Below, piece after piece: positions 3,173 through 28,749 of a DNA stretch of 29,041 nt. Under the pieces are notes generated by a model, which did no database searches, was not told the DNA's origin, and worked only from the letters and a program-made list of their open reading frames with translations. The position numbers were made by a program, and so were the translations under genes. Origin of the DNA: Thermodesulfobacteriota bacterium. Its GTDB lineage: Bacteria > Desulfobacterota_D > UBA1144 > Nemesobacterales > JAZGCJ01. Positions within the stretch are counted from its first letter, which is position 1. Each line of letters opens with the position of its first letter. Location of the stretch: NCBI GenBank assembly GCA_036476895.1, contig JAZGCJ010000206.1, positions 1 to 29,041 on the forward strand, in the 5' to 3' direction.

Positions 3173-3444
3173 AACGAATACAGGTAACTACGAGAATGGA
3201 TGAAGCAGTCCTAAAGATGGTTGATGGAAACGTAGGAGCTACAACTGTGGTAGGACAGATCATGAAGAAGCTCCCACAAGATTGGATTATTCAATTAGCG
3301 TTTCTAGACGACCAAGAAATCTATGGTCCTGACATTTGGATTTGTTACAAGAACGTATGTGATTATGATCTTGATAAATTTATAGACGAGAATAAACACA
3401 ATAAGCTTAAAGGTTTGTTAGCGGAGTATAAGAAGCAGAAATAA
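3169..3444 (+). CDS. hypothetical protein (91 aa)
   Basis: ATGA coupling; GGGGAAAAAATG RBS. Confidence 0.6.
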   Translation: MKRIQVTTRMDEAVLKMVDGNVGATTVVGQIMKKLPQDWIIQLAFLDDQEIYGPDIWICYKNVCDYDLDKFIDENKHNKLKGLLAEYKKQK

Positions 3445-3474
3445 GCAGTAAATACAACTAAGGAGAAGGTAATA

Positions 3475-3675
3475 ATGAAGGGTACAGTAAAGTGGTTCAA
3501 CAAAAGTAAAGGATACGGGTTCATTACCAAAGAAGGCGGAGGCGATGTATTTTTACATTTCTCTGCAATTCAAGGTGACGGATACAAAGAAGTCCGAGAA
3601 GGTGAAGAAGTGGAGTTCGATATAGAGACAGGAGAGAAAGGCGAGAAAGCAACAAACGTAAAAAGACAGTCATAA
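3475..3675 (+). CDS. cspA: cold-shock protein, CspA family (CSD/OB-fold, RNP1/RNP2 motifs KGYGFI / VFLHFS)
   Basis: [17 protein letters not shown]…DVFLHFSAI… is near-canonical CspA; AAGGAGAAGG RBS. Confidence 0.9.
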
Positions 3676-3980
3676 GTTATCAACACGTATCAGTAGTTAA
3701 TACGGTAGCATAAGTTACTGTTGTGTTTGTATTACAGCCCCTAGTCGCATTAAGGGAGGAATTACAAGTACTATGGTGGGTAACGTCACAATCATGCTAT
3801 TTGTATAGTAGAGTAGAAGCAAGGCTGTATTATACTACTAATGCTATAGCATAAGTTTACGCACTTAATGTGTCATAACTGATACATTGGAGTAATTCAT
3901 GCGATAGGGAAACTATGTTGCATACTAGACAATTGTCTGGAAAGGTAGCCAACTTCCCGAAAATTTTGTATTATATAAGT
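3671..3980. promoter_or_regulatory. 330-nt non-coding region with iteron-like repeats and an extended -10 promoter in front of the AAA+ gene
   Basis: 11-mer TAGCATAAGTT at 3706-3716 and 3847-3857 plus GTCATAAGTT at 3669-3678; TGTATTATA (TG-n-TATTAT) at about 3967-3976, roughly 35 nt before the ATG. Confidence 0.4.
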
Positions 3981-5552: not shown

Positions 5553-5753
5553 ATGAGAATGAAACACACATTAATCGCATTGTTATTGTTATTCACAGCA
5601 GTTGTTCGCATTCCAATGAAAGGTACACACACGTACAAAGATATTGTGGAAGTGCATGTGTTTCCTAATGCGTATCATTATCGATTAACATTGACGGATG
5701 GACGTACAGTCTATGTTCCTATGTTGTGGACAATCATTGAAGAAAACAAATGA
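5553..5753 (+). CDS. small protein with N-terminal signal/TM segment (MRMKHTLIALLLLFTAVV)
   Basis: ORF with hydrophobic N-terminus; ATGA overlap with the next gene. Confidence 0.5.
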   Translation: MRMKHTLIALLLLFTAVVRIPMKGTHTYKDIVEVHVFPNAYHYRLTLTDGRTVYVPMLWTIIEENK

Positions 5754-5968
5754 GTGAGAAGATAGGATTTACAGAACAGTTCAAAATTGAGGAGATTGAA
5801 TATTTCAATCTTCAGGTTCAACAACCTCCCAAAATTTGTGTTAAATGTGGTGTTAATTTAAGCATAATTGATGGATGGATTGATATCAAAGGTACTGGTT
5901 TCTGTGGAGAGTGTGTTAAAAAAGTTTTCATGATCAATACAGACGGAGGAAAAGATGCGAACAGCTAA
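5750..5968 (+). CDS. zinc-ribbon small protein (CVKCG…CGEC)
   Basis: Two CxxC pairs about 25 aa apart. Confidence 0.55.
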   Translation: MSEKIGFTEQFKIEEIEYFNLQVQQPPKICVKCGVNLSIIDGWIDIKGTGFCGECVKKVFMINTDGGKDANS

Positions 5969-6490: not shown

Positions 6491-6783
6491 AAAAGGTCTT
6501 AGAGTTACTGGAGATAAATGACGGTCTCTACATCGTACCAGAGGAGATTGCTGAGATAACAATAATTAAAGATGGTAAAGTGTTTGGTCCTCAGCATCTT
6601 GGTCATACACTTATCACACTCAAAAATGGTAACTCTCATATAGCTCCGCTTGCTCTTCTCAAACTATTTCAGAATTGGTCTATATCTGGTCAAGGCTCAG
6701 GCTTTGAAGGTGTGGATATTTACACAATCTACAAAGATGAGGAAGAGCTTAAGGCAGAGCTTAAGACAGACTCGAAGGAGTGA
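6487..6783 (+). CDS. hypothetical protein (98 aa)
   Basis: ATGA coupling. Confidence 0.55.
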   Translation: MKKVLELLEINDGLYIVPEEIAEITIIKDGKVFGPQHLGHTLITLKNGNSHIAPLALLKLFQNWSISGQGSGFEGVDIYTIYKDEEELKAELKTDSKE

Positions 6784-7265
6784 CATTTATCATAAATGTA
6801 CCTATCGAGTTTTCCATAAGACCAGATGATTATAAGACAAGGGTTCGAAGCCGAAGAGGGTTTGAATACGTTAATCATATCGATGGTTGGGATCGTTTAG
6901 ATAAGAACAGACGCAGAGCCGATTGGTATTTTGAAAGAGTTGTGAATGATTGTTTGTCGGTATGGGATCAATCCGAAGCTTTTAGACATGAGAAACAATT
7001 ACACCAAGGAAGAAAAGTTTGTAGTTGCATGGATAGTCTTACTTGTCGGTGTTTAGAACGCTTGCTATTGGTTAGAATACTTGATTATTTACAATCCCGC
7101 AAAGGTAATGGTGTAAGAGTATCTTACATTCCTTTAGTGAGAGCATGGTTCGTAGCGGAGTATGGTATTTGGCATTACGATATGAATAACTTAAAGATTA
7201 TAGAAGCATGGGACAGTTTTGAATTGGAGGAAGAATATGGCAAAGCTACGAAAGAATGTGTGTAA
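6780..7265 (+). CDS. hypothetical protein with degenerate C-terminal tag (…YDMNNLKIIEAWDSFEL…)
   Basis: ORF with GTGA start coupling and a tag-like C-terminus. Confidence 0.55.
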   Translation: MTFIINVPIEFSIRPDDYKTRVRSRRGFEYVNHIDGWDRLDKNRRRADWYFERVVNDCLSVWDQSEAFRHEKQLHQGRKVCSCMDSLTCRCLERLLLVRILDYLQSRKGNGVRVSYIPLVRAWFVAEYGIWHYDMNNLKIIEAWDSFELEEEYGKATKECV

Positions 7266-7686
7266 TCTTGGTAGACCATCAACAACCATACATGCAGTTA
7301 AACGAGATATAAATCTCAATAAATTAACAGACAATGAATTGTTTTTAACCATCATGGATAGCATAAAGGTGGGGGCTATTCATAAACTCCAAAAGGTAAA
7401 AGGTCAGAAGCGTGTTTGGGCTAACAGAGCAGTATTTTATTTAGGTAAGAATAATAAAATGATAGTGGAAAATATACTCACTACTCTTAATAGCGAGTAT
7501 CGATTAATTATTGTGGCACCTCGCAAAGGATGGGATGTACGTTTTCCAACCACAACGAAATTCAATTATTACTTAGATTGTATGTTATGGGCGTTACCTA
7601 AGTTTTATGATATAGGTGGTGACTTGAACGTTTCAGAAGGAGTTGAATATTCATATAAAAAATGTAGGAGACCAAGATCAATATGA
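7237..7686 (+). CDS. hypothetical protein (~149 aa)
   Basis: ATG at 7237 is preceded by GGAGG at 7227-7231; in frame with the longer ORF 7219-7686. Confidence 0.55.
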   Translation: MAKLRKNVCNLGRPSTTIHAVKRDINLNKLTDNELFLTIMDSIKVGAIHKLQKVKGQKRVWANRAVFYLGKNNKMIVENILTTLNSEYRLIIVAPRKGWDVRFPTTTKFNYYLDCMLWALPKFYDIGGDLNVSEGVEYSYKKCRRPRSI

Positions 7687-8381
7687 GCGAAGAGAATAAA
7701 GAAAAGAAAGAAAAGAATTGGGCAACCAAGTTAGCTGAAGATGAGGCTAAGAAAGAGGCAGATGCGGTACCAAACTGGAAGCGTGTAGTAAATGGTATTG
7801 GAAAGGTAGTTAATACAATAACGACTCAGATTAATAATGAGTTACAAAAGAAACAACAGTTGAAAGCTCTAAGACGAGACCAAGCTATAGGTTTGTTAAA
7901 GCCGACGAATCCACCCTCACCAGAACAAATCTTTAGAAAGGAAGGGGCAGGATACGATCCTGAGAATCCTATGAAGCCAGTTCAAGATGGAAATATAAAT
8001 GTTGGGAATGGTGGTAACACTATTCGATTTCAAACAGGGAATATACCAAGATTTGACATAGATGAAGAGACAGGATTCTATCGTAATGCAACGAAGGAAG
8101 GTTTTATTAAGCGACCAGCAAAGCGGATAAAAATCAAGAAGATTAGAGGTGATACAATAATAAACACTGGCTTCGATAAAGATGTTAAAGACATGGTAGG
8201 TCCTGCTGATGGAAAACTCAAAGAGGTTAAACTGAATGAGCACTATTACCAGGTGAATGTTAAATGCTTCAATTGTCAGGAAACGTATACGTTTGGGATT
8301 CCAAGAGGTACAATGGCTCAAGGGTTTCTGGCTAAACAGCCATGTAAGAAGTGTGGTGTTAAATACTTGAGAAAATACTAG
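7683..8381 (+). CDS. hypothetical protein with C-terminal zinc ribbon (CFNCQ…CKKCG)
   Basis: 232-aa ORF; ATGA coupling; TAG stop. Confidence 0.6.
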   Translation: MSEENKEKKEKNWATKLAEDEAKKEADAVPNWKRVVNGIGKVVNTITTQINNELQKKQQLKALRRDQAIGLLKPTNPPSPEQIFRKEGAGYDPENPMKPVQDGNINVGNGGNTIRFQTGNIPRFDIDEETGFYRNATKEGFIKRPAKRIKIKKIRGDTIINTGFDKDVKDMVGPADGKLKEVKLNEHYYQVNVKCFNCQETYTFGIPRGTMAQGFLAKQPCKKCGVKYLRKY

Positions 8382-8389
8382 GAGAAAGG

Positions 8390-8686
8390 ATGAACAACTT
8401 CTATAAATTAGCAACATTAGTAAAAAGTAAACAACAAAAGATTAAACCTACAGGATATCCTAAGATTGAACCCTTAAAGACTTTTTGCAACACGTGTGGC
8501 TCTCCGATGTTGAAAAAAACATTTATTCGGTTCAAAGGATATAGTACGATATCGGGGAAAGCTCATTATAAAGAAGTAAGTCAAGATATATGTTCGTTGA
8601 CTAGGGTAACTTTTTTTAAGCTACCTTTCATTTTAGCTGATCGGAAAGTGTTTGGATATGCTAACGGACATGATGATTATTTATGA
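8390..8686 (+). CDS. hypothetical protein (98 aa)
   Basis: GGAGAAAGG RBS; stop overlaps the next start. Confidence 0.5.
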   Translation: MNNFYKLATLVKSKQQKIKPTGYPKIEPLKTFCNTCGSPMLKKTFIRFKGYSTISGKAHYKEVSQDICSLTRVTFFKLPFILADRKVFGYANGHDDYL

Positions 8687-9033
8687 GATTAAAGAAACAT
8701 CCAAAGATCATAGTCAAAACAATTAACAAAGGATTTCAAAAAGATATCAAGGCTACGTTTGATTTTAATGATGGGATGATACCAAAAGCTCAGGATATTG
8801 TATCATTAGGTGGAGCTACTAAGAAATGGATTGAATTTGCAAAGTGGAAAAAGAAACCAGAGATGACTCGCAAAGATGGTGAGACGTTTATAAAAGCATG
8901 GAAGAATGGATATGTATGTTATGAGGGAAGTAAGAGAAGATGGTACAAGAGTACAATTAAAAAACATCTCTTGAATGAAATGATAGATAATCTTGAAGCT
9001 ATAGATTTATTGAGAGAGAATGATTTGTTATGA
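8683..9033 (+). CDS. NNLEAID-tag family protein (…KKHLLNEMIDNLEAIDLLRENDLL)
   Basis: Conserved C-terminal module; first of three tandem family members. Confidence 0.6.
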   Translation: MRLKKHPKIIVKTINKGFQKDIKATFDFNDGMIPKAQDIVSLGGATKKWIEFAKWKKKPEMTRKDGETFIKAWKNGYVCYEGSKRRWYKSTIKKHLLNEMIDNLEAIDLLRENDLL

Positions 9034-9320
9034 AGAAACTATCAACAACGGATTTAGTAAAGTCCATAACGGTACTCCGCTCAACCGCAGTTCGAAAAGG
9101 TGATATAGTGCTGTTAAGTAATGGTACATCGTGTATTATTACAGGTGATGGAATGACACGAAAACAAATCAAGACTTATTTATCCATGATGAAAAAGGAT
9201 TTAGATAGGAAACGATCTTATGTGGTTCCTAAGAATGTGAGAAAGTATGTTATTAAACACGCAGCAAATAATTTAGACGCAATTGACTTATTGGAGAAAT
9301 ATGGATTCTTACAAATTTAA
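9030..9320 (+). CDS. NNLEAID-tag family protein (…RKYVIKHAANNLDAIDLLEKYGFLQI)
   Basis: Conserved C-terminal module; ATGA coupling. Confidence 0.6.
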   Translation: MKKLSTTDLVKSITVLRSTAVRKGDIVLLSNGTSCIITGDGMTRKQIKTYLSMMKKDLDRKRSYVVPKNVRKYVIKHAANNLDAIDLLEKYGFLQI

Positions 9321-9717
9321 TAACAACACGATGATTTATATTAATGGTCTCTTACAGTTGGAAGGTAAGACAAACGATTACATGATTTATGATGGGATGG
9401 TACTATTTACATCTCAATTGAACGAAAATGATGTGGTTCAAAAAGTAACTATAGGTGGGAAGATAACTATGAATAAGGGTGGAAAATATGGTTCTCTATT
9501 GAAAGAAACTTTTAAAGGCTCAGAGTTTATGAGTAACCAACTAGAATCAATCGTTAAGAACTATGCTCGGTATCGACAGTTTTATTCTCCACAACAAATA
9601 AAGGATATGATTATTAAATTTGGGGTAAACAATTTGAAAATCATTGATACGCTAAAGCGTATAAATTTACTTTATACGCCTAAGCGTATAAAACGTAAGA
9701 GAGCGAAAACACGTTGA
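9283..9717 (+). CDS. NNLEAID-tag family protein (…IKFGVNNLKIIDTLKRINLL) with basic tail
   Basis: Conserved module; the true start may be the ATG at 9331. Confidence 0.5.
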   Translation: MTYWRNMDSYKFNNNTMIYINGLLQLEGKTNDYMIYDGMVLFTSQLNENDVVQKVTIGGKITMNKGGKYGSLLKETFKGSEFMSNQLESIVKNYARYRQFYSPQQIKDMIIKFGVNNLKIIDTLKRINLLYTPKRIKRKRAKTR

Positions 9718-9739
9718 TTTATGGGTGTAAAGAAAAGAC

Positions 9740-9767
9740 TTGATAAAAGACTACATTCTGTTATACT
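9740..9767 (+). promoter_or_regulatory. sigma70/sigA-type promoter TTGATA-16-TATACT
   Basis: -35 at 9740-9745, -10 at 9762-9767, in the only gap of this gene array. Confidence 0.5.
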
Positions 9768-9840
9768 GATTAATCGGAAAGCATTAAAAGAGAATTACAA
9801 AATGTCCTGTAATAAACATAAAGGAAAGAGGGTGAAGAAA

Positions 9841-9975
9841 TGATGGAATTATTGATGGTTCTATTTACGATATCTCTCACGGTAGCAGCAGGGGCAACTG
9901 GTATTCTTATTGCTGCAACAAATCTTCAAGGGTATTGGCACCTGCCGTGGGGACGTTTGGACTTTATTCCATATT
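9841..9975 (+). CDS. small membrane protein (44 aa, one TM helix)
   Basis: AAGGAAAGAGGG RBS; hydrophobic core LFTISLTVAAGATGILIAA. Confidence 0.35.
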
Positions 9976-10055
9976 GATATACCTATTATGAGAACTCAGA
10001 AAAGAATGAAAGGTCTATCAGGATTTTTGTTGGTAATAGTGTTATTCATGCAACC

Positions 10056-10319
10056 ATGAAAACAGGTATGACTCCAGATGGAATATTTGATTATTATGCA
10101 ATGGTTATAGAAGGTATTGGGGATCACTACAAACTGGCTCCAGGAAGAGGTGCTGATATCTTAGCAATAAATAAAGCTATAAATCGCTTAGGAGCAGGTA
10201 GTGTGGGGACTAAGAATCCAATCACGATAGATACTCAGTTGCATGAAGAATTTAAAAAGTTGATAGGGCAAATCGATAATCTTAAATACACAGAGAGAAT
10301 AGGAAACGAACAGAAATGA
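10056..10319 (+). CDS. hypothetical protein (87 aa)
   Basis: ORF; ATGA coupling downstream. Confidence 0.55.
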   Translation: MKTGMTPDGIFDYYAMVIEGIGDHYKLAPGRGADILAINKAINRLGAGSVGTKNPITIDTQLHEEFKKLIGQIDNLKYTERIGNEQK

Positions 10320-10522
10320 AGAAGCTAAGATTTTTCATCTTCGGGGCAGTCCTTAGCACAATACTAAGCAACGATTTTAACATCATGTTGCTTGATCCAA
10401 CATGGTGGATTGTAGTGGCGTTTGGATTTGTAGTTTATGCACTTATAGAATATACTCTCATTACGCCAGCAATAAAGGATTTCATAGCTTTCATGAAAAA
10501 AAGACAAAGGGGAAAGAAATGA
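10316..10522 (+). CDS. small integral membrane protein (two TM helices)
   Basis: FIFGAVLSTILS and WWIVVAFGFVVYALIEYTLI hydrophobic segments. Confidence 0.55.
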   Translation: MKKLRFFIFGAVLSTILSNDFNIMLLDPTWWIVVAFGFVVYALIEYTLITPAIKDFIAFMKKRQRGKK

Positions 10523-10866
10523 ATAAGAGAGGATGGACATTAATTGAAACCATGATCATGGTAGCAATCATCGGAATAGTGTTAGCAGTTATTATTCCGA
10601 AGGTGTTTCCAGATAAGAAGGCACAACTGGAAAGACAACAACAAGAACAAAGACTGGAAAAGGAAAAGGTTCGTACCGAGGAAAACAAGACAAATGCGGA
10701 CTACATTGTAACTCTAATGCAGGGAACACAAAAACTTCAAATCTATCATGTTACACGGTATGACTTTGAAGATGAAGGTCGTATAAGATTAACAATGTTC
10801 TCTGGTCCTGATAAACTATTAGTAATTCCCACAGGACATTATGTAGAGATTGAGGAGACACAATGA
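10519..10866 (+). CDS. type IV pilin / pseudopilin-like protein (class III prepilin signal)
   Basis: N-terminus MNKRG|WTLIETMIMVAIIGIVLAVIIP: short basic leader, Gly at -1, Glu at +5, about 20-aa hydrophobic helix (prepilin-peptidase substrate signature); ATGA coupling. Confidence 0.6.
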   Translation: MNKRGWTLIETMIMVAIIGIVLAVIIPKVFPDKKAQLERQQQEQRLEKEKVRTEENKTNADYIVTLMQGTQKLQIYHVTRYDFEDEGRIRLTMFSGPDKLLVIPTGHYVEIEETQ

Positions 10867-11192
10867 AAGAGCGACATATGTGGTTCGTCCTGATAGCATT
10901 AGTTATTGGGGCGTTAGTATTCGTTACGTCAGGGTGTTGTAAGAAAACTACAACAGAGGGTAAGACTTTAATCGACGGAACAACCGCTACAACAACCACC
11001 ACGACGCAAGGTAGTAAATATGTGAACACACGGAAGAAAAGTGGGGGGCGGTTAGAAACCGTTCATAATCAGCGTTGGTACAAAGTCTTTCGAGTTAAAG
11101 TACCTGATGGGTGGATTGTGATTTATGATGGAGCAGAGGGTGCTGGGTTGGTGGTTTATTCTGATCCCGAACATCAGTGGATATTGGATTAG
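10863..11192 (+). CDS. putative lipoprotein with Thr-rich linker
   Basis: Signal peptide MKERHMWFVLIALVIGALVFVTSGC with lipobox-like VTSGC, then TTTTTTQ linker. Confidence 0.5.
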   Translation: MKERHMWFVLIALVIGALVFVTSGCCKKTTTEGKTLIDGTTATTTTTTQGSKYVNTRKKSGGRLETVHNQRWYKVFRVKVPDGWIVIYDGAEGAGLVVYSDPEHQWILD

Positions 11193-11997: not shown

Positions 11998-12272
11998 TGA
12001 GTGATTGTAAATGTTCAGAACAAATAGCTCGACTGCGGATTAGGTTACGAATCCTCGAACGCTATATGGCCGAACTCATGTTGAAGAGAGATCGTCAGCA
12101 GTTACGAGATGGGGTGCCGGACGAATATAAAGAGTGGCCGTTAGATTCGTGTGAAGACTGTCATCATATACGGCAGGAACATGCCTACAATCTCTATCAT
12201 TGTCAGCGTAGGAAAGATGATGAACGATGTAAATGTAATGAGTTTATCTTTCAGGAGGTTCCGGCGGAATGA
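11997..12272 (+). CDS. Cys/His-rich small protein (putative zinc binding)
   Basis: CKC…CEDCHH…HCQ…CKC pattern; ATGA coupling. Confidence 0.5.
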   Translation: MSDCKCSEQIARLRIRLRILERYMAELMLKRDRQQLRDGVPDEYKEWPLDSCEDCHHIRQEHAYNLYHCQRRKDDERCKCNEFIFQEVPAE

Positions 12273-12787
12273 TGGATATAATCTTTGGGGCGGGTTTAGC
12301 GTCTGCGGTCTTCATATTATTTCTTTTTATTTGGACGGGCCTTTTAGACAAAGAGATTAAGCCTTTTTTACTACACAGATTTTTCTATCCGAAACTACCG
12401 TTTAAGTTTCCATATCGATATGCATTAGCGAAATGGGAGAGAGCAGAGTTTCATACGAAGAACCAATGTAGAGAAATTACGATAAAAGGTAAGGTCGCCA
12501 CTTGGTTTGGTATCTTAGAAGTTGGAGTTAAGGAGAATGGGTTATGGGGCTATACAATTTTTCTATTAAAAGGTGTTGGGACAAAAGAAGGATTTGTTCT
12601 TGAACCCGACACTGATTTAATTCGGTTGCTAAATGAGGGGAAAGACTTTTCAAGGATTTTTAAAGAGCACGAAATTGAATTACACATGGAATCGGATTTA
12701 GGGACCAAGATGAAAGAGTTAGAAACTAAAATCAATAACTTGAAAGTGATTGAGAGGATAACAGATGAAGCTGATAGAAACTCCTGA
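12269..12787 (+). CDS. hypothetical protein with N-terminal TM helix and degenerate tag (…KINNLKVIERITDEADRNS)
   Basis: 172-aa ORF. Confidence 0.55.
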   Translation: MMDIIFGAGLASAVFILFLFIWTGLLDKEIKPFLLHRFFYPKLPFKFPYRYALAKWERAEFHTKNQCREITIKGKVATWFGILEVGVKENGLWGYTIFLLKGVGTKEGFVLEPDTDLIRLLNEGKDFSRIFKEHEIELHMESDLGTKMKELETKINNLKVIERITDEADRNS

Positions 12788-13160
12788 GATTGAGTATGAG
12801 GAGCAAGAAGTACAATATAACGGAGAACATCCTTATGTTAAGGATTTGGTGTCAAATGAACGGCATCCAGTCACAGCACATACGCATGAATTGGTGTGGA
12901 GGGTGTGGCCTGTAACAGACAGTCGGTTATACAAGTTGAAATACTGGGGATCAATAGAGCGGGAACTGATAGCTTTTGAAAACCAGCATCAACCACCGTT
13001 TTTTATTTATTTAGGAGCAGACTTTAAAATCCCTTATTTATCTTTAGCTGATCCGTCCTTGCCATCGTTGAGTAATTTAGAATTGGTGGAATACATTGGA
13101 CAGAAAAGGATTGAATATGAAGAGTTTTTAGTTAGACTTAAGACTGGACAAAAGCGGTAA
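12765..13160 (+). CDS. hypothetical protein with degenerate tag (…SLSNLELVEYIGQKR…)
   Basis: 131-aa ORF. Confidence 0.5.
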   Translation: MKLIETPEIEYEEQEVQYNGEHPYVKDLVSNERHPVTAHTHELVWRVWPVTDSRLYKLKYWGSIERELIAFENQHQPPFFIYLGADFKIPYLSLADPSLPSLSNLELVEYIGQKRIEYEEFLVRLKTGQKR

Positions 13161-13205: not shown

Positions 13206-13640
13206 ATGATTATGGATACTTTTGACGAACACGAACACAAAGCTTTATTAACTGATGTTGTTAGCGGGATTGCATTTGAGGTTGAATTAAAGAGAACGCA
13301 TCGCATTGATCTAGCTATGTCAATGAGACATGATGGTTTGTATGAGGTCAAATTGAAAGAACCTATGTTAGCAAAACAGGCATTCTTTTTGATAGATCGT
13401 CCATTTGTATTTAAGGTGTGGGATATGTTAAGTAGTCATGAGGTTCCCGTTATCGATGATTTTGTTGTGACAGATATTAATTCAGAGCTATTAACAAATA
13501 TTGCACTGGATAAACATCGTCCCTATTTGAGGGAAATTATTTTGCGAAAGATAAACAATTTACAAGTAGTTGACTTAACTGAGAAGTTCAAAGAGAAAGA
13601 CAGAAAGACCAAACTAAAAATGAAACAAAAGGAGAAATAA
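13206..13640 (+). CDS. hypothetical protein with degenerate tag (…RKINNLQVVDLTEKF…) and Lys-rich tail
   Basis: 144-aa ORF downstream of the strong promoter. Confidence 0.55.
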   Translation: MIMDTFDEHEHKALLTDVVSGIAFEVELKRTHRIDLAMSMRHDGLYEVKLKEPMLAKQAFFLIDRPFVFKVWDMLSSHEVPVIDDFVVTDINSELLTNIALDKHRPYLREIILRKINNLQVVDLTEKFKEKDRKTKLKMKQKEK

Positions 13641-13642
13641 AC

Positions 13643-14542
13643 ATGCCGTTCCTACTAGCGACGATAGCATTAATCGTAGGCTTGGGACTCAAGTATGGAT
13701 TGAAGAGAGGGTTTGATGGAAAAGCCTTCTCTCGTGACTTGGTTCTATTTGGGTTTATTGCCTTCGGTGTAGCTGGTGTCATTAAAGCAATCACAATCGT
13801 GGATGCGGGACACCGAGTAGTAGTGTTTGATAGAATATCAGGTGTTAAACCGGATGCCTTGGGAGAAGGATTTCATCTCATTATTCCAGGTATTCAAGAT
13901 GCATTCGCATTTGATGTTCGAACACAGAAAGTAAACATTAAAGAAAATGCAGCGTCAAAAGATATGCAAGATGTTACAACCGAGCTTGCAATTCAATATC
14001 ATCCAGTCGCATCAGCGATGCCAATCTTATATCAACAGTTTGGTATTGGATATGTTGATAAGATCGTTCCACCTGCTGTTCAAGAATCATTGAAAGCGGT
14101 TACGGCCCTTTATACGGCTGAGGAACTTATCACGAGACGTGCTGAGGTTAAAGTTGCATTACACACAGCCTTGAAGTTAAAATTAGCTGAATCAAATCTA
14201 ATGTTGGTAGATGTGTTTATTACCGACTTCAAGTTCTCCAGTGCGTTTGCAAAGGCTATTGAGAACAAGCAGGTTCAGGAGCAAAAAGCTCTGGAAGCTC
14301 AGAGAAAATTGGAAGAAGTTAAATTCCAAGCTGATCAGAAGATTGCTCAAGCTAAAGCTGAAGCTGAATCTCTTAGACTTCAAAAGTCACAAATCACTCC
14401 GAATCTATTGAAACTTCGAGAAATCGAAGTTAGAGCTAAAGCCATTGAGAAATGGAATGGTGTTCAACCACGAGTTGTTATTTCCGGTCAGGGTGGAAGT
14501 GGACTCTTGTTGAATCTTGGTGGATTAGGTACAGGAAAATAA
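13643..14542 (+). CDS. SPFH/band-7 domain membrane protein (prohibitin/HflK/C-like)
   Basis: N-terminal TM segments, band-7 core (GHRVVVFDR…, …LIIPGIQDAF…DVRTQKV…), then Ala/Glu/Gln/Lys-rich coiled coil (QEQKALEAQRKLEE…AQAKAEAE) typical of prohibitins. Confidence 0.9.
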   Translation: MPFLLATIALIVGLGLKYGLKRGFDGKAFSRDLVLFGFIAFGVAGVIKAITIVDAGHRVVVFDRISGVKPDALGEGFHLIIPGIQDAFAFDVRTQKVNIKENAASKDMQDVTTELAIQYHPVASAMPILYQQFGIGYVDKIVPPAVQESLKAVTALYTAEELITRRAEVKVALHTALKLKLAESNLMLVDVFITDFKFSSAFAKAIENKQVQEQKALEAQRKLEEVKFQADQKIAQAKAEAESLRLQKSQITPNLLKLREIEVRAKAIEKWNGVQPRVVISGQGGSGLLLNLGGLGTGK

Positions 14543-18249: not shown

Positions 18250-18310
18250 ACAAATTGATGGAAAAGTCTTATAACATAAGTAGGTGTAGTGACAACAGAT
18301 TTGCGGACAA

Positions 18311-18482
18311 AGGAAGTTCCTATAAAACTTCACTAATGGAAAAAATACTTCCCGTCCCTCTAATTTAGGTAAAGGGAGTTCCTATAACTATTTAAAGGTA
18401 GACCGCCTTCGGGCGGTCTGATATTACTCCCCACCAATTTTTAGGCAGAAAGAGTTCCTATAAAATAAGCCCTTCGGGGCTT
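18311..18482 (+). promoter_or_regulatory. three direct copies of a 17-nt motif AAAGrGAGTTCCTATAA, two followed by GC hairpins with UUCG tetraloops
   Basis: Copies end at 18327, 18388 and 18465. Hairpins AGACCGCC-TTCG-GGCGGTCT at 18400-18419 and AAGCCC-TTCG-GGGCTT at 18467-18482 have no U-tract. They sit 70-220 nt upstream of the 608-aa gene. Confidence 0.5.
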
Positions 18483-18533: not shown

Positions 18534-20360
18534 ATGAAAACATTAAAATTGTTCAATGCAGTTGTTGAGAAGAAATCAGATAAGAAACATTTTGTGTCTG
18601 AAGATGGATATGTTATTGAATCGGGGGCACTTTGGGCTAAGACCCGAATTGTTAATTACTACAAGAAAGAGGCATTGAACGGTAACGACCTGAATAAGAC
18701 TTTCCATAAGTCATGGAAAAAGATTAAAGATAGTACTCGTGGAGAATTACTTGTTCATCAGATCCTTCATTATTTGACAACTTACGGTACTGGTTTTCAA
18801 ATGGAAGCTTACATTCCTAATGAGATTGTTAAACTTCCTAAAACAAAGATTGTTTTCAAAGTGATCAAAGCATACACCAAAGAAGAATTAATTAACAAAG
18901 CTTTGAGAATGTTGAAATCAGGGATTGCTCTGAAAGAAGAAACAGTCAATGATTTGTTGTCTGTTCTTGTGGATGATCTTGATTATAAATTTACAGGTGA
19001 TGAGGGGATTAAAAATAAAGAAGCTGTCGTAAAGATTGCTGATCTTTATGGTGTTATTCCTAATGACTTCATGGGCTTCTTCCGTTACATTCTTTACAGA
19101 GCCACTGAATCAACCTTGATCATTAAGAACAAACGAACCATTGAAACTGTTCAAAAGAGTTCATACAATCCTGCTGCCCAATTTAAGAAATTTGGCTTAG
19201 CTAAAGTAGCAGAACATTTCAATAGATTTAAGCCTTTATTCTTGGCATTTAAATCTAAGTGTCCAAAAGTTATAAATAAAATCTCGAAGCTTTCGAAAAC
19301 CAATCATAAACCAATGGTTCAGAATGCTTTGAATCTTGTGACTCAGCGAAAGCTTACTGTTGATGATAATCACTGGCTTGCTAACGCAACTCTTTTTGCT
19401 TTGTTTAAAGCATTGAATGCTGTTCATCTTCGTTTGAATGGGCAGAATACGTTTCTTTATAAGATTCGTAATGGAAAGTCTTACGCTAAAGAGAGTAAAG
19501 TTACTTCTGTCAATGAGCATAATTATAACTACTTAATCAAATACTTGAAGGGTAGATTTTCATTCAATGGTAAGAAGATTTTTATTCCTGAAGATGTTGT
19601 GTATGCCCTTCCTACTTCGGAGAAAATGTTTGTTGGGAATATTCCTATGGGTTCTAAGTTCTACGGTAACAAGTTGGCTGTTGGTATTTATTGGAAGAAT
19701 TCGGGAGGAGCACGAGACCTTGATTTGTCAAGTATCAATGTTGACGGTAAGGTAGGTTGGAATAGAAGTTATTATGATGAAGACCAAAACCTTATGTTCT
19801 CAGGAGATATTACAAATGCTCCTGATGGGGCTGTTGAATATCTTCACGCCAAGAAAGGTGTAGCACATCCTACAATTGTAATGAACAATGTGTACAGTTT
19901 CTCAGGATCTGATTGGGGTGAGGATACTACAGGTAAAACTTGCAAGTATAAGATCATCATTGGTCGTGGTGATAGAATTGACAGAAAGTTTATGATGAAT
20001 CCTAATAATTTGTTCATGGAAACTAATGTTGAATCAGTTCAAGAACAATCAATTATTGGCTTGTTCTTACAGGAAGGTAAAAGACAAGCATTTGTTGTTC
20101 TTAACTTCGGAGCAGGACAAGCAAGAGTTTCTGGAGGCAATGAGCATTCTGCCACTGCTCGTGTTGCATTGACTCAGGAATGGAGTAATTCATTGTCATT
20201 CAATACGATTGTGGAAGCACTAGGTGCGAAGATTGTTCAGAAAAGTAAAGACGCTGATATTGATCTTTCTTTAAATACGTTAGAAAGGGATTCGTTTATT
20301 AAAATCTTTGAATCAAAGGGAAGTAACACTACCAAACAAAAAGTATTGGTAAAAGTGTAG
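18534..20360 (+). CDS. 608-aa protein with C-terminal TerD-like domain
   Basis: GGGAGAATCAAATG RBS. Residues ~375-560 (KLAVGIYW…ARDLDLSSINVDGKV…LMFSGDITNAPDGAVEYL…PTIVMNNVYSF…IIGLFLQEGKRQAFVVLNFGAGQ) follow the TerD block order (GlgW…DlDlSa…DGkV…hSGDn…vfvv…lfgely…AvGqG) by eye; N-terminal 370 aa unassigned. Confidence 0.8.
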   Translation: MKTLKLFNAVVEKKSDKKHFVSEDGYVIESGALWAKTRIVNYYKKEALNGNDLNKTFHKSWKKIKDSTRGELLVHQILHYLTTYGTGFQMEAYIPNEIVKLPKTKIVFKVIKAYTKEELINKALRMLKSGIALKEETVNDLLSVLVDDLDYKFTGDEGIKNKEAVVKIADLYGVIPNDFMGFFRYILYRATESTLIIKNKRTIETVQKSSYNPAAQFKKFGLAKVAEHFNRFKPLFLAFKSKCPKVINKISKLSKTNHKPMVQNALNLVTQRKLTVDDNHWLANATLFALFKALNAVHLRLNGQNTFLYKIRNGKSYAKESKVTSVNEHNYNYLIKYLKGRFSFNGKKIFIPEDVVYALPTSEKMFVGNIPMGSKFYGNKLAVGIYWKNSGGARDLDLSSINVDGKVGWNRSYYDEDQNLMFSGDITNAPDGAVEYLHAKKGVAHPTIVMNNVYSFSGSDWGEDTTGKTCKYKIIIGRGDRIDRKFMMNPNNLFMETNVESVQEQSIIGLFLQEGKRQAFVVLNFGAGQARVSGGNEHSATARVALTQEWSNSLSFNTIVEALGAKIVQKSKDADIDLSLNTLERDSFIKIFESKGSNTTKQKVLVKV

Positions 20361-20383: not shown

Positions 20384-20420
20384 AATCCTGATTCATTGTC
20401 TGATGGGTCAGGATTTTTTT
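20384..20420 (+). terminator. rho-independent terminator
   Basis: AATCCTGA…TCAGGATT 8-bp stem followed by TTTTTTT, directly after the stop of the 608-aa gene. Confidence 0.7.
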
Positions 20421-20434
20421 ATGGGAGGCATAAC

Positions 20435-20611
20435 ATGGGAGTATCAACGACATTAAGTTGGGAAGAAATAAAGGAAGAGCGAATCAACGGGTATATTGAT
20501 TCTTATGATAATGGTGAGATTAATAAAGCCGAATTACGGGAAGGCATAATCGAGGTTGCGGATAATAATTTAGAAGCGATTGATATTCTTGATTTTGCTG
20601 GAGCACTGTAA
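20435..20611 (+). CDS. NNLEAID-tag family protein (…EGIIEVADNNLEAIDILDFAGAL)
   Basis: ATG at 20435 after GGGAGG (20423-20428); in frame with ORF 20396-20611, whose 5' part overlaps the terminator. Confidence 0.55.
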   Translation: MGVSTTLSWEEIKEERINGYIDSYDNGEINKAELREGIIEVADNNLEAIDILDFAGAL

Positions 20612-25847: not shown

Positions 25848-26047
25848 AGAAATTAATAAGTATGACCGTAGATATTGAGTTCGGGCTTCCAGTTGTTTTA
25901 TTGAAAAAAGGTGATATCATAGAAGTTGAACCTCATAAGTCAATTCCTAATGCTTATCATGTTTTCTTTAACGATAAACGAACCGAAAGTGAATTATTGT
26001 TAAATGAACCCGCAATATTTGAAAGAGTTAATGAAGCAGCAGCATGA
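25844..26047 (+). CDS. hypothetical protein (67 aa)
   Basis: ATGA coupling. Confidence 0.5.
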   Translation: MKKLISMTVDIEFGLPVVLLKKGDIIEVEPHKSIPNAYHVFFNDKRTESELLLNEPAIFERVNEAAA

Positions 26048-26400
26048 GTATCAATCCGAACGTCTATCAATTAAAGGACCCCAAGACTAAAGCTATTCTT
26101 GTGGGGACACATGGTGTTGGTGGAATTCAGATTACTGTTTCTTGTTACAATAAGTTGTACGATAAGTTATCGTATGCACCCGATAACTTAATCGGAATGG
26201 TTTTTGAGGAGTCCTTGCGAGGTGAGAAATCATTTGCAAAGGTCACATCGTTTGGTAGTCATAAGTGGATGAGTAAGAGGAAAAATGAGACCTTCTCAAC
26301 TTTATGTTATGAGGCGGTCCAGTTGGAGGTGTTCAAAGATAATTTATCGACCATAGAAGCTGTTGAGGAGCATAACAAGAAATTTAAGGAGAAGAAGTGA
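26044..26400 (+). CDS. hypothetical protein (118 aa)
   Basis: ATGA coupling. Confidence 0.55.
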   Translation: MSINPNVYQLKDPKTKAILVGTHGVGGIQITVSCYNKLYDKLSYAPDNLIGMVFEESLRGEKSFAKVTSFGSHKWMSKRKNETFSTLCYEAVQLEVFKDNLSTIEAVEEHNKKFKEKK

Positions 26401-26717
26401 GGGAGATATTGCTGGCAGCATTGATAGCCGGACAATTTGGACTTGCCTCGGTATCCGAGACACCTATAACAATTGAATTATATGCAATGAATTGTCAAAA
26501 AGTTGCAGATTTTACAGCAATAACAGTTATCATTCCAGAGGATAGTTATATGATTTATCGTAGTGATAAACAAAGTCTCAAAGCCTCAACTTGGAAGTTG
26601 GAAGGAATTCAGGAAATTAGAGTTACGGCAAAGAAGAATAAATGGATTTTTGTTCGGGGGAAAGATGGTAAATTCAAAGAAGTAGAACAAAGTGTCTGCG
26701 GGACGATAATTTCATGA
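26397..26717 (+). CDS. hypothetical secreted/periplasmic protein (signal-like N-terminus)
   Basis: GTG start; MREILLAALIAGQFGLASVSE. Confidence 0.45.
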   Translation: MREILLAALIAGQFGLASVSETPITIELYAMNCQKVADFTAITVIIPEDSYMIYRSDKQSLKASTWKLEGIQEIRVTAKKNKWIFVRGKDGKFKEVEQSVCGTIIS

Positions 26718-27019
26718 GGAACAAAAAGGATTTGAAATATTGGCAGGATGTGGGGGAATTAGTTAAAGAGATTTTTCTATCGACGGAGAAGTGCTCGTGT
26801 AACTTAATCATAGAGTTGATGGAGGAAGAAGAAGATTGGGGAAAGCATCAACCCTGTCATTATTGTCAATTGATAGCGGTTATCAAACACACGTTGCTCA
26901 ATTATTATGAAAAATCCATCAAAAGGGCTGACGTTGTAGAGGTTTTGATGGAATACAACATCCAGAATTTGGAGATAATCGAGGCTATTGAAGCCGTCGA
27001 TCAGTTGAAAAAAGAGTAA
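26714..27019 (+). CDS. NNLEAID-tag family protein, Cys-containing (…MEYNIQNLEIIEAIEAVDQLKKE)
   Basis: Conserved module; ATGA coupling. Confidence 0.55.
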   Translation: MRNKKDLKYWQDVGELVKEIFLSTEKCSCNLIIELMEEEEDWGKHQPCHYCQLIAVIKHTLLNYYEKSIKRADVVEVLMEYNIQNLEIIEAIEAVDQLKKE

Positions 27020-27263: not shown

Positions 27264-27336
27264 GCCCATGTAACTCAGATGGTAGAGTGCCTGTTTGAAG
27301 CACAGGTGGTCGCAAGCTCGAACCTTGCCGTGGGCA
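27264..27336 (+). tRNA. tRNA-Phe (anticodon GAA)
   Basis: Manual fold: acceptor GCCCATG/CGTGGGC, D-stem ACTC/GAGT, anticodon stem CCTGT/ACAGG, loop TTGAAGC, T-stem GCAAG/CTTGC; no encoded CCA. Confidence 0.7.
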
Positions 27337-27337
27337 C

Positions 27338-27411
27338 GCCGAATTAGTACAATGGTAGTACACGTCATTGGTAATGATGAGATATGAGTTCAATTCTCGT
27401 ATTCGGCTCCA
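27338..27411 (+). tRNA. tRNA with anticodon GGU (Thr)
   Basis: Acceptor GCCGAAT/ATTCGGC, D GTAC/GTAC, anticodon stem CGTCA/TGATG, loop TTGGTAA, T-loop TTCAATT, encoded CCA. Confidence 0.65.
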
Positions 27412-27412
27412 T

Positions 27413-27486
27413 GCCACCATAGCTCAATAGTAGAGCAATGCTTTTGTAAAGCGAAGACGAGGGAGCGTTACCTTCTGGTGGCTCCA
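27413..27486 (+). tRNA. atypical tRNA, anticodon UGU (Thr) as folded
   Basis: Perfect acceptor GCCACCA/TGGTGGC and D-arm GCTC/GAGC. Anticodon stem has one mismatch (ATGCT/AGCGA); loop TTTGTAA; T-loop AGCGTTA is non-canonical; encoded CCA. Confidence 0.45.
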
Positions 27487-27491
27487 GATTT

Positions 27492-27803
27492 ATGTTCAAC
27501 AAAATAAAGCGTTGGTATATAGACTTTTGTAAAAGACATTCAACGGCTGTGGGGATTGTCGAGTTAGAAGATTATATCATTCCTTCAGGGCATTCAGTTT
27601 TTACAAATTTGCATGGTTGGTGGACTCCACCAAATGAAGTTTTAGAGTTTTGGGCAGCAGGATGCAAATATCGATACCTCAGTGATAATTGGTGGTTTAT
27701 TGACTTAGTGTTAGCATCTAAAGAAGCGGATACGGATATTGAAAAGATAAAACAGTCGTATGAGAAAGCAATTCAAGATTTTTATCGAATCAATGCTTTG
27801 TAA
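27492..27803 (+). CDS. hypothetical protein (103 aa), Trp-rich
   Basis: ATG 6 nt after the tRNA CCA; stop abuts the next tRNA. Confidence 0.55.
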   Translation: MFNKIKRWYIDFCKRHSTAVGIVELEDYIIPSGHSVFTNLHGWWTPPNEVLEFWAAGCKYRYLSDNWWFIDLVLASKEADTDIEKIKQSYEKAIQDFYRINAL

Positions 27804-27877
27804 GCCTCAATAGTTTAATGGAAGAATTCTCGTTTCGTAATCGAGGGATGCCAGTCCGATTCTGGCTTGAGGCTCCA
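27804..27877 (+). tRNA. tRNA, anticodon CGU (Thr) as folded
   Basis: Acceptor GCCTCAA/TTGAGGC, T-arm GCCAG-TCCGATT-CTGGC, anticodon stem CTCGT/TCGAG with U:U at 31:39, loop TTCGTAA; weak D-stem; encoded CCA. Confidence 0.5.
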
Positions 27878-27970
27878 GATTTTCGTCGCCGGAGACCCTT
27901 TTCACCCTTTCGAGGTCTTGTGGACTTCAAAGGCGAAGGGTTGTCAGAAGTCTGACGGTGACACTAATTT

Positions 27971-28312
27971 ATGAATCGATTCGAAAAAGTCCGAGACTTA
28001 GTTAAAGATATAGCAGCTAGGAAATGTAACAAAATTGACGAATACAATAATTTTGTTACAACTTTTCCGACAATTATCAGCATATATGTTGAACATATGA
28101 AATTCTGTAAAGAAAAAGAAAGTCCAATCTTCACTCATCATACTGCAAGAATATCTACGAAACAAGCAAATGAGTTAAGAGAGGAGTGGAGAGATGAATT
28201 TATCAAAACGTGTAAATATCCACACTATAATTTAAACAATTTAGAAATTATTGAACTGCACGATTTATTAGTAAAGTTAAAATTTTTAGAATCAACAAAT
28301 TTGGGGCTGTAG
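27971..28312 (+). CDS. NNLEAID-tag family protein (…KYPHYNLNNLEIIELHDLLVKLKFL…)
   Basis: Conserved module; TAG stop overlaps the first bases of tRNA-Ala. Confidence 0.55.
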   Translation: MNRFEKVRDLVKDIAARKCNKIDEYNNFVTTFPTIISIYVEHMKFCKEKESPIFTHHTARISTKQANELREEWRDEFIKTCKYPHYNLNNLEIIELHDLLVKLKFLESTNLGL

Positions 28313-28379
28313 CTCAATTAGGGAGAGCACTCCGCTTGCAACGGAAAGGTTGTGGGTTCGATTCCCACTAGCTCCACCA
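28303..28379 (+). tRNA. tRNA-Ala (anticodon UGC) with G3:U70
   Basis: Acceptor GGGGCTG/TAGCTCC gives the G3:U70 alanine identity pair; anticodon loop CTTGCAA; T-arm GTGGG-TTCGATT-CCCAC; encoded CCA. Confidence 0.8.
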
Positions 28380-28384
28380 ATTTT

Positions 28385-28534
28385 ATGAAAAGACGAACAC
28401 TTGAAATCATCTTATGGATTATTTTACCCTTCTGGATGATAGCAGCAGATTATGTTGCTGTAGATGGATTTCATACGAAACTTATTATGAAGAAAGTTTC
28501 TCAAATTTATGAGACAATTAAAAGTAGGAGATAA
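28385..28534 (+). CDS. small membrane protein (49 aa)
   Basis: ATG 6 nt after the tRNA CCA; IILWIILPFWMIAADYVAV. Confidence 0.35.
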   Translation: MKRRTLEIILWIILPFWMIAADYVAVDGFHTKLIMKKVSQIYETIKSRR

Positions 28535-28675
28535 AGTTTATTCGCTATATTTCAATCAAGAGATCACAATCGTGAAGATTGTAGATGATAATAACTGGGA
28601 GTTTGAGATCCAAGGTCATATTGAGAAAGCAAAAACTCCGCTATCATATTTTGAACGAAAAGCGAAATAATTTCT

Positions 28676-28749
28676 GGTTGTATGGTGTAGTGGCAGCACG
28701 TTAGCCTGTCAAGCTAAAAGTGGGGGTCCAATTCCCCCTATGACCGCCA
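28676..28749 (+). tRNA. tRNA-Asp (anticodon GUC)
   Basis: Acceptor GGTTGTA/TATGACC, D GTGT/GCAC, anticodon stem TTAGC/GCTAA, loop CTGTCAA, T-arm GGGGG-TCCAATT-CCCCC, encoded CCA. Confidence 0.75.

Follow-up and report, generated by a model that had tools for sequence, protein, structure and literature searches.

Why do three adjacent, overlapping genes encode proteins with the same short motif close to their C-terminus? The question is posed by the genes P1, P2 and P3, which lie in tandem at positions 8683 to 9717 of a 29,041-nucleotide (nt) stretch of DNA, the whole of which is called the window here. The window corresponds to about positions 48,848-77,888 of the 78,757-bp contig JAZHCF010533808.1, which was binned in a 'Thermodesulfobacteriota' metagenome-assembled genome. 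The first-pass annotation read the trio as the outcome of local duplication followed by N-terminal divergence, in an actively expanding family of the kind seen in anti-defence or host-takeover arrays. The comparisons described below show instead that the three genes are old and diverged members of a multigene family confined to one uncultured phage lineage. In every member the N-terminal head varies and the C-terminal part, a helical module of about 30-55 residues, is constant, and we give about an even chance to the idea that this module is a constant handle for protein-protein association, the heads giving specificity.

The contig looks like a phage. The window has a G+C content of 37%, its gene-like open reading frames (ORFs) are short, overlapping and nearly all on the + strand, and it holds five tRNA genes. 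The recognisable products include a metallophosphatase, a cold-shock domain protein, a Cdc48/VAT-like AAA+ protein, an SPFH protein, an endonuclease VII and an exonuclease. A megablast search found no DNA-level relatives of the window among the INPHARED phages.

The three genes are all on the + strand. P1 (8683-9033, 116 residues) consists of a head (residues 1-59) and the C-terminal module (60-116, nt 8860-9030), in which the motif reads DNLEAIDLL (8986-9012). In P2 (9030-9320, 96 residues, identical to NCBI V3U54_07690) a module of three helices is predicted at residues 44-91 (about nt 9159-9302), the third of them formed by the motif NNLDAIDLL (9267-9293). P3 (9301-9717, 138 residues) has a beta-rich head (10-72) and a predicted three-helix module (73-120, nt 9517-9660) with the motif NNLKIIDTL (9628-9654), followed by 20 residues, most of which belong to a basic tail, TPKRIKRKRAKTR. 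The arrangement first described, three consecutive + strand ORFs that share the motif and overlap by ATGA or a short overlap, is real, with one amendment: the start of P3 had been placed at the TTG at 9283, and the ATG at 9301 is preferred on the basis of the NCBI call and of the N-termini of the orthologues, MASYKFNNN and MGSYKVND. P1 and P2 overlap by ATGA and P2 and P3 by 20 nt, the latter overlap being present in relatives too. An ATGA overlap likewise joins P1 to the gene upstream of it (8390-8686), so coupling of this kind is not peculiar to the trio. That each protein ends in the motif held for P1 and P2, where 6-8 residues follow it, and not for P3, where 20 do. The best sigma-70-like match within 6500-11000 lies just past the P3 stop, at 9740-9767 (TTGATA, 16 nt, TATACT, extended TG), and this match to the consensus suggests that P3 may close a transcription unit.

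How far does the similarity between the three proteins extend? HHalign comparison of their orthologue alignments matched P1 60-116 with P2 41-94 over 53 columns at 91% probability, and P2 51-94 with P3 81-124 over 44 columns at 70%; P1 and P3 matched only over their last 30 residues, at 3%. On these alignments the trio shares a C-terminal module of 44-55 residues, which goes beyond the 10-residue core that had been noticed; the modules are therefore homologous, in keeping with common descent. An absence of similarity outside that core had been proposed as the sign that the motifs were acquired independently, and the 53 and 44 columns are similarity of just this kind. The K-K-W/Y-basic pattern that had been seen upstream of the motif in P1 and P2 is likewise real, and falls inside the 53-column match. 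The rest of the proteins gave a different picture. BLASTP among 13 motif-bearing proteins with the motif removed found nothing (E > 0.7), and BLASTP, HHalign and shuffle tests detected no significant similarity between the heads of the trio; in the shuffle tests some P2-P3 pairs reached p values of 0.012-0.06, but these were scattered and came from differing registers, and they were not taken as evidence. Even within the module, identity between paralogues is only about 30%, helix 3 being much better conserved across them than helices 1 and 2, and the P2 module is as close to those of two distant ORFs, 1035-1340 and 20396-20611, as it is to those of its neighbours. Across the members the heads are zinc-ribbon-like, beta-rich or membrane-anchored.

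The motif is not a feature of the trio alone. The trio does carry it, as had been reported, but so do genes all along the part of the genome that was covered, namely the window and 10 kb upstream, which together make up about half of the contig (78.8 kb). When the ends of all + strand ORFs of the window were read, N-N-L-x-h-I-D-x-L was seen near the C-terminus of 13 clear and about 4 weaker ones, with a consensus over members of N-N-L-x-h-[IV]-[DE]-x-h; about five further carriers lie in the 10 kb upstream, and more occur in relatives. By this census roughly a fifth of the small genes of the uncultured phage end in the same small helical module. The pattern NLxx[IV][ED] occurs within the last 35 residues of the products of 12/64 genes, compared with a mean of 0.15 and a maximum of 2 in 2000 shuffles of the proteins. 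The back-translated pattern RAYAAYYTN7RTNGA has 12 matches, all on the + strand, in frame and near a C-terminus, and shuffles gave 0.49 and at most 3; both patterns, protein and DNA, were defined post hoc, once the motif was known. A chance origin of the repeated motif is excluded. Among members the distance from the motif to the C-terminus is 6-29 residues, and tagged genes, as we call those that encode the motif, form 5 adjacent pairs where 2.9 are expected (p = 0.13), so clustering is not significant.

Next to its abundance in this genome stands its narrow distribution. A hidden Markov model (HMM) seeded with the 13 clear members scored related members in other assemblies at 11-25 bits. In phages that share the AAA+ protein of the window (3 loci) or a 608-residue protein encoded at 18534-20360 (16 loci) at 30-60% identity, 344 kb in total, no tags were found, the best score of the model being 8.0 bits for a spurious minus-strand ORF. 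An exhaustive HMMER search of 1.84 billion representatives with the tag profile found nothing outside the phage lineage, its 7 hits all being lineage orthologues, and a family-wide profile retrieved from 5.8 billion proteins only one, from JAZHCF010533808.1 itself. The tag profile found none in IMG/VR and GTDB genomes and, among JGI metagenome contigs, only an already known 1.2-kb contig. We found no description of the motif in the literature.

Within the lineage the trio is conserved. Orthologues of P1 occur in contigs L003, L004/L005 and L027, those of P2 include P0002 (89% identical) and P0004 (61%), and those of P3 are in L002 and L004. The order P1-P2-P3 and the copy number are kept in L002-L005, short contigs from other samples, with P2 89% identical in L004/L005 and 61% in L002/L003. 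In L027, a distant 7.6-kb contig whose AAA+ protein is 61% identical to that of the window, the genes run metallophosphatase, AAA+, several small genes, an orthologue of the tagged gene 6780-7265, two zinc-ribbon genes, a P1-like and a P2-like gene, and after P2 a DUF932 gene in place of P3. The trio is a stable, translationally coupled block in a conserved run of zinc-ribbon, zinc-ribbon, P1, P2 and P3, and turnover at its locus appears only at the deeper level of L027. Since the P1-P2 pair is kept as far as L027, the split between P1 and P2 predates these lineages, and together with the one-to-one trio in two relatives this indicates that the array is old and not actively expanding.

The module is strongly constrained, and the constraint lies in the protein. 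Codons for identical residues in the motifs of paralogues are shared 160 times, against 155.5 expected from codon usage; synonymous codons differ between motif copies, and a repeat analysis found no DNA repeat family over the motifs or the trio genes. In the 16-codon core of P2, comparison with two orthologues showed 0 nonsynonymous changes (proportion of nonsynonymous differences, pN, 0) with synonymous proportions (pS) of 0.35 and 0.72, figures that carry one confound, the final 20 nt of P2 doubling as the beginning of the P3 gene, while head identity in the same two comparisons was 0.84 and 0.32. P1 and P3 showed the same gradient, with an identity of 0.69-0.80 in the core and 0.38-0.64 in the head. 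The motif core is thus the slowest-evolving part, and selection acts on the protein, neither on DNA nor on RNA.

What does this part of the protein look like? AlphaFold2 predicted the modules of P2 and P3 as a three-helix bundle with the motif as the last helix. For P2 the mean predicted local distance difference test (pLDDT) score was 80, with 82-94 in the module (helices 44-59, 67-77 and 81-91) and a weaker helix and hairpin before it. For P3 the mean was 75, with a five-strand head (10-72), helices at 73-91, 97-107 and 111-120 and a disordered tail. The two predictions are not independent, because paralogue modules are present in both alignments. The NN of the motif is predicted to cap the last helix, and L/I/L to lie on its hydrophobic face, as read from helical periodicity. 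Fold searches returned only generic helical or weak immunoglobulin-like matches; among the closest known folds no specific family was prominent, identity being mostly 2-16% and at most 22% (a designed protein). Sequence profile searches of 15 tagged proteins gave no significant match in Pfam, PHROGs or the PDB. A reading of the motif as UBA-like or as a helix-turn-helix was supported by no search and was dropped.

We favour a constant association handle because very different heads keep the same module, because one gene encodes little else, because helix 3 is the most conserved part, and because the trio is translationally coupled, as the genes for subunits of one complex often are. The nearly module-only member is the 58-residue protein encoded at 20435-20611, which makes the module look like an autonomous unit. 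With heads as various as those of the family, a shared handle fits better than a shared activity, and the excess conservation of helix 3 over helices 1 and 2 suggests a constraint beyond folding. The module would attach the heads to one shared partner or to each other; in the simplest version, the co-translated P1, P2 and P3 would be subunits that associate via their paralogous modules. Several points weigh against this explanation. The census of the family rests on about half of the 78.8-kb contig. The paralogue modules in the AlphaFold alignments bias P3 towards the P2 fold; the fold prediction covers P2 and P3, and the looser members differ by 0-8 residues in the length of the loop that precedes the motif. 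Finally, the conserved residues are the cap N and the L, I/V and L placed by periodicity on the hydrophobic face, and the presumed exposed positions vary, so that folding alone could explain the motif.

That last point leads to the alternative that fares best, possible but on the unlikely side, in which the module is a small, stable helical scaffold of deeply diverged paralogues whose members act singly, with no common partner or destination. It would account for conservation at the cap and the hydrophobic face, but leaves unexplained why helix 3 is conserved in excess of helices 1 and 2, why the same module sits on very different heads, and why a 58-residue protein consists of the module and little more.

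A further reading, to which we give some modest chance, is that the module serves as an address or docking signal across the genome, routing about 20 small proteins to one hub, whether inside the capsid, for injection, in a compartment that the phage builds, or at a central machine of the host or the phage. A more specific form of this idea, which we consider doubtful, is that of a sorting or packaging signal at the C-terminus, comparable to the T4 capsid targeting sequence (CTS) or to encapsulin cargo-loading peptides, which would take the proteins to the capsid interior or to a compartment built by the phage. The about 20 small proteins are otherwise unrelated and have only the terminal module in common, and the internal proteins of T-even phages are likewise diverse save for their conserved CTS (PMC3012670). 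However, the predicted structures pack the motif into a folded bundle, unlike a flexible peptide, there is no consistent protease site (A-I-D, I-I-E and T-I-E are all present), the capsid genes lie outside the sequence examined, and twenty different proteins would be a large number to package.

That the trio arose by recent local duplication in tandem, as part of an anti-defence or host-takeover array that is actively expanding, is improbable. In favour of it, the genes sit side by side and have homologous C-terminal modules, and a few P2-P3 head pairs gave the weak, inconsistent hints mentioned above. Only the C-terminal 44-55 residues of the neighbours align, however, and the heads differ in predicted secondary structure as well as in sequence, P2 having a helix and hairpin and P3 five strands. 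The members most similar to P2 lie elsewhere than beside it, the tagged genes do not cluster significantly, and no similarity remains between copies at the DNA level, codon sharing being what usage alone would give. The array is one-to-one in relatives; towards the more distant ones synonymous sites are near saturation, and the paralogues are far apart within the module. Copy-number variation was not seen in the close relatives L002/L003 and L004/L005, and only the distant L027 lacks P3 at this place. As far as these comparisons go, which bear on the history of the array and neither for nor against an anti-defence or host-takeover role, 'recent' and 'expanding' are largely refuted.

Still less probable is a tag for degradation or unfolding, in which the C-terminal ends would be read by the Cdc48/VAT-like AAA+ protein of the phage (4011-5399) or by a host protease, making the proteins short-lived or remodelled. 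This AAA+ protein has a single ring, is closest to archaeal VAT and to the D2 domains of Cdc48/p97 (E 8e-43), and carries a unique N-domain of about 185 residues; moreover, members end in hydrophobic residues (LL, AL, QI) or basic tails, which loosely recall the classes of C-terminal signals of ClpX. Full-length homologues of the ATPase (40-52% identical) are nevertheless frequent on large phage-like contigs, which reach 193 kb. They occur in many phage contigs free of tags, and the phage loci whose ATPase is 46-52% identical have none; this weakens the explanation, and the variable distance between motif and C-terminus and the predicted folding of the motif speak against it too. In the three loci examined, the homologues occur with a replication module (RecA and SbcCD-like, with DnaB and PolA in 2/3). 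A tag-like stretch, GDLTLIDLKRKYGW, in the AAA+ protein was set aside as noise: the L027 orthologue scored 3.7 bits, and the window copy was not among the matches listed.

Lastly, a nucleotide-level signal (promoter, RNA element or recombination site) that happens to be translated has next to no chance and is excluded as far as sequence analysis can show. The motif does often contain AAT-TTR, but its codons are chosen as in the genome at large, substitutions are conservative as amino acids (I/V/L, D/E), orthologue cores identical in protein reach a pS of 0.72, there is no DNA repeat family, and every pattern match is in frame near a C-terminus. Ribosome arrest, a reinitiation signal and a promoter had each been considered, and were ruled out by the varying distance from the motif to the stop and by the free synonymous sites.

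The other members of the family are spread along the window, all on the + strand where the strand is given here. At its start, 1035-1340 (+, 101 residues, NNLEAIDKL at 1293-1319) is absent from the NCBI annotation and corresponds to P0009 in three other assemblies (L024-L026); it shares 107 nt, read in a different frame, with the 3' end of 704-1141 (+, 145 residues), a probable member with VNNLIAMEQ around 1001-1027 and then a long basic tail, which matches the DNA pattern at 1001-1020 and whose L025 orthologue reads VNNLEVMEQ. Next come a weak or possible member that fits a relaxed pattern only (1325-1738, +, SNLELMAAL at 1646-1672), a 133-residue member (2214-2615, +, DNLKLVEIF at 2553-2579) scoring 27.2 bits with the HMM, whose seed includes it, a weaker variant of the motif at 5750-5968, and the 161-residue product of 6780-7265 (+, NNLKIIEAW at 7185-7211), whose L027 orthologue (3249-3704) has NNLSIIERL. 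Downstream of the trio, 9840-10319 (+) encodes a degenerate member, IDNLKYTERI, which has a membrane helix at the N-terminus and whose reading frame is interrupted by a TGA codon; tblastn found its counterpart in L027 at 7043-7516 (157 residues, INNLKFIERV). The in-frame TGA, at 9975-9977 (IPY*YTY), stands where the L027 orthologue has Arg, and may be a nonsense mutation, an assembly error or a read-through codon. Three members follow closely on one another, 12269-12787 (+, 172 residues, NNLKVIERI at 12734-12760), 12765-13160 (+, 131 residues, SNLELVEYI at 13071-13097) and 13206-13640 (+, 144 residues, NNLQVVDLT at 13554-13580). The minimal member at 20435-20611 (+), 58 residues long with the NCBI start, has NNLEAIDIL at 20564-20590 and is P0003, that is V3U54_07815. 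Towards the end lie 26044-26400 (+, 118 residues, DNLSTIEAV at 26338-26364), 26714-27019 (+, 101 residues, QNLEIIEAI at 26963-26989) and 27971-28312 (+, 113 residues, NNLEIIELH at 28235-28261), the last within the tRNA cluster. Upstream of the window, the 187-residue protein encoded at L022 8017-8580 contains a tag-like stretch, DNLSALRLLDAYGLL, 77 residues from its end, which may have come from the fusion of genes or be a copy of the module in an internal position.

Some other features of the window were noted. The SPFH/Band 7 gene 13643-14542 lies directly 3' of the tagged gene 13206-13640, an arrangement that recalls, in gene order only, the NfeD-SPFH gene pairs of bacteria. The five tRNA genes (Phe, Thr, Thr, Ala and Asp, 27264-28749) are interleaved with small ORFs, and the tagged ORF 27971-28312 has 10 nt in common with the start of tRNA-Ala. 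The 608-residue protein has homologues (29-60% identical) in 16 IMG/VR contigs and no sequence match in Pfam, PHROG or the PDB; in L006 it is encoded upstream of ORFs sized like portal, protease and capsid genes, and it may be a very divergent large terminase, as a candidate only. In the 285-nt gap before its gene, 18302-18463 holds three 24-nt direct repeats (consensus TTTAGGnAAAGGGAGTTCCTATAA) and a GC-rich hairpin (18401-18417), which could be regulatory repeats.

If the module is a common handle or address, about 20 proteins without an assigned function would be placed in one process: finding one partner would place all the members, the unannotated block of genes would become a testable set, and the module would offer a portable tag with which to direct proteins in that phage system. 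If it is a scaffold only, what remains is a new orphan domain family, unusually expanded for a phage contig of about 79 kb, of value for annotation and otherwise ordinary. In either case the orphan family is new and its expansion unusually large, phage paralogue families in general being already known.

Among known systems, NleG-type effectors are similar in forming a large paralogue family on mobile or phage DNA, with a variable N-terminus, which gives specificity, and a conserved C-terminal domain. That constant domain is described as a U-box ubiquitin ligase (PMC2891834); the module described here, of about 50 residues, is purely helical, lacks catalytic features and has no sequence or fold relation to it. 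Encapsulin cargo-loading peptides resemble it in that a short tag picks cargo for a common destination. These peptides are usually C-terminal, short and flexible, and stand behind a disordered linker. The motif shares with them its C-terminal position on unrelated proteins but not their flexibility, being predicted, at pLDDT 82-94, to form the third helix of a bundle. The prohead-protease site of T4 is L/I-x-E, and the CTS of its internal proteins, whose genes are in one locus, is an unstructured stretch of about 10 residues at the N-terminus, which that protease removes. The motif lies 6-29 residues from the C-terminus, and A-I-D, T-I-E and V-V-D do not fit an L/I-x-E site at its end. The likeness to the T-even internal proteins, very diverse small proteins that share a short conserved terminal element (PMC3012670), is that diverse small phage proteins have only a terminal element in common; the difference is that here it is C-terminal, a predicted folded module of 30-55 residues, in about 20 genes over at least 39 kb. 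As an address, then, the module would be, with the modest chance given to it above, a folded C-terminal counterpart of the T4 CTS on a far larger scale.
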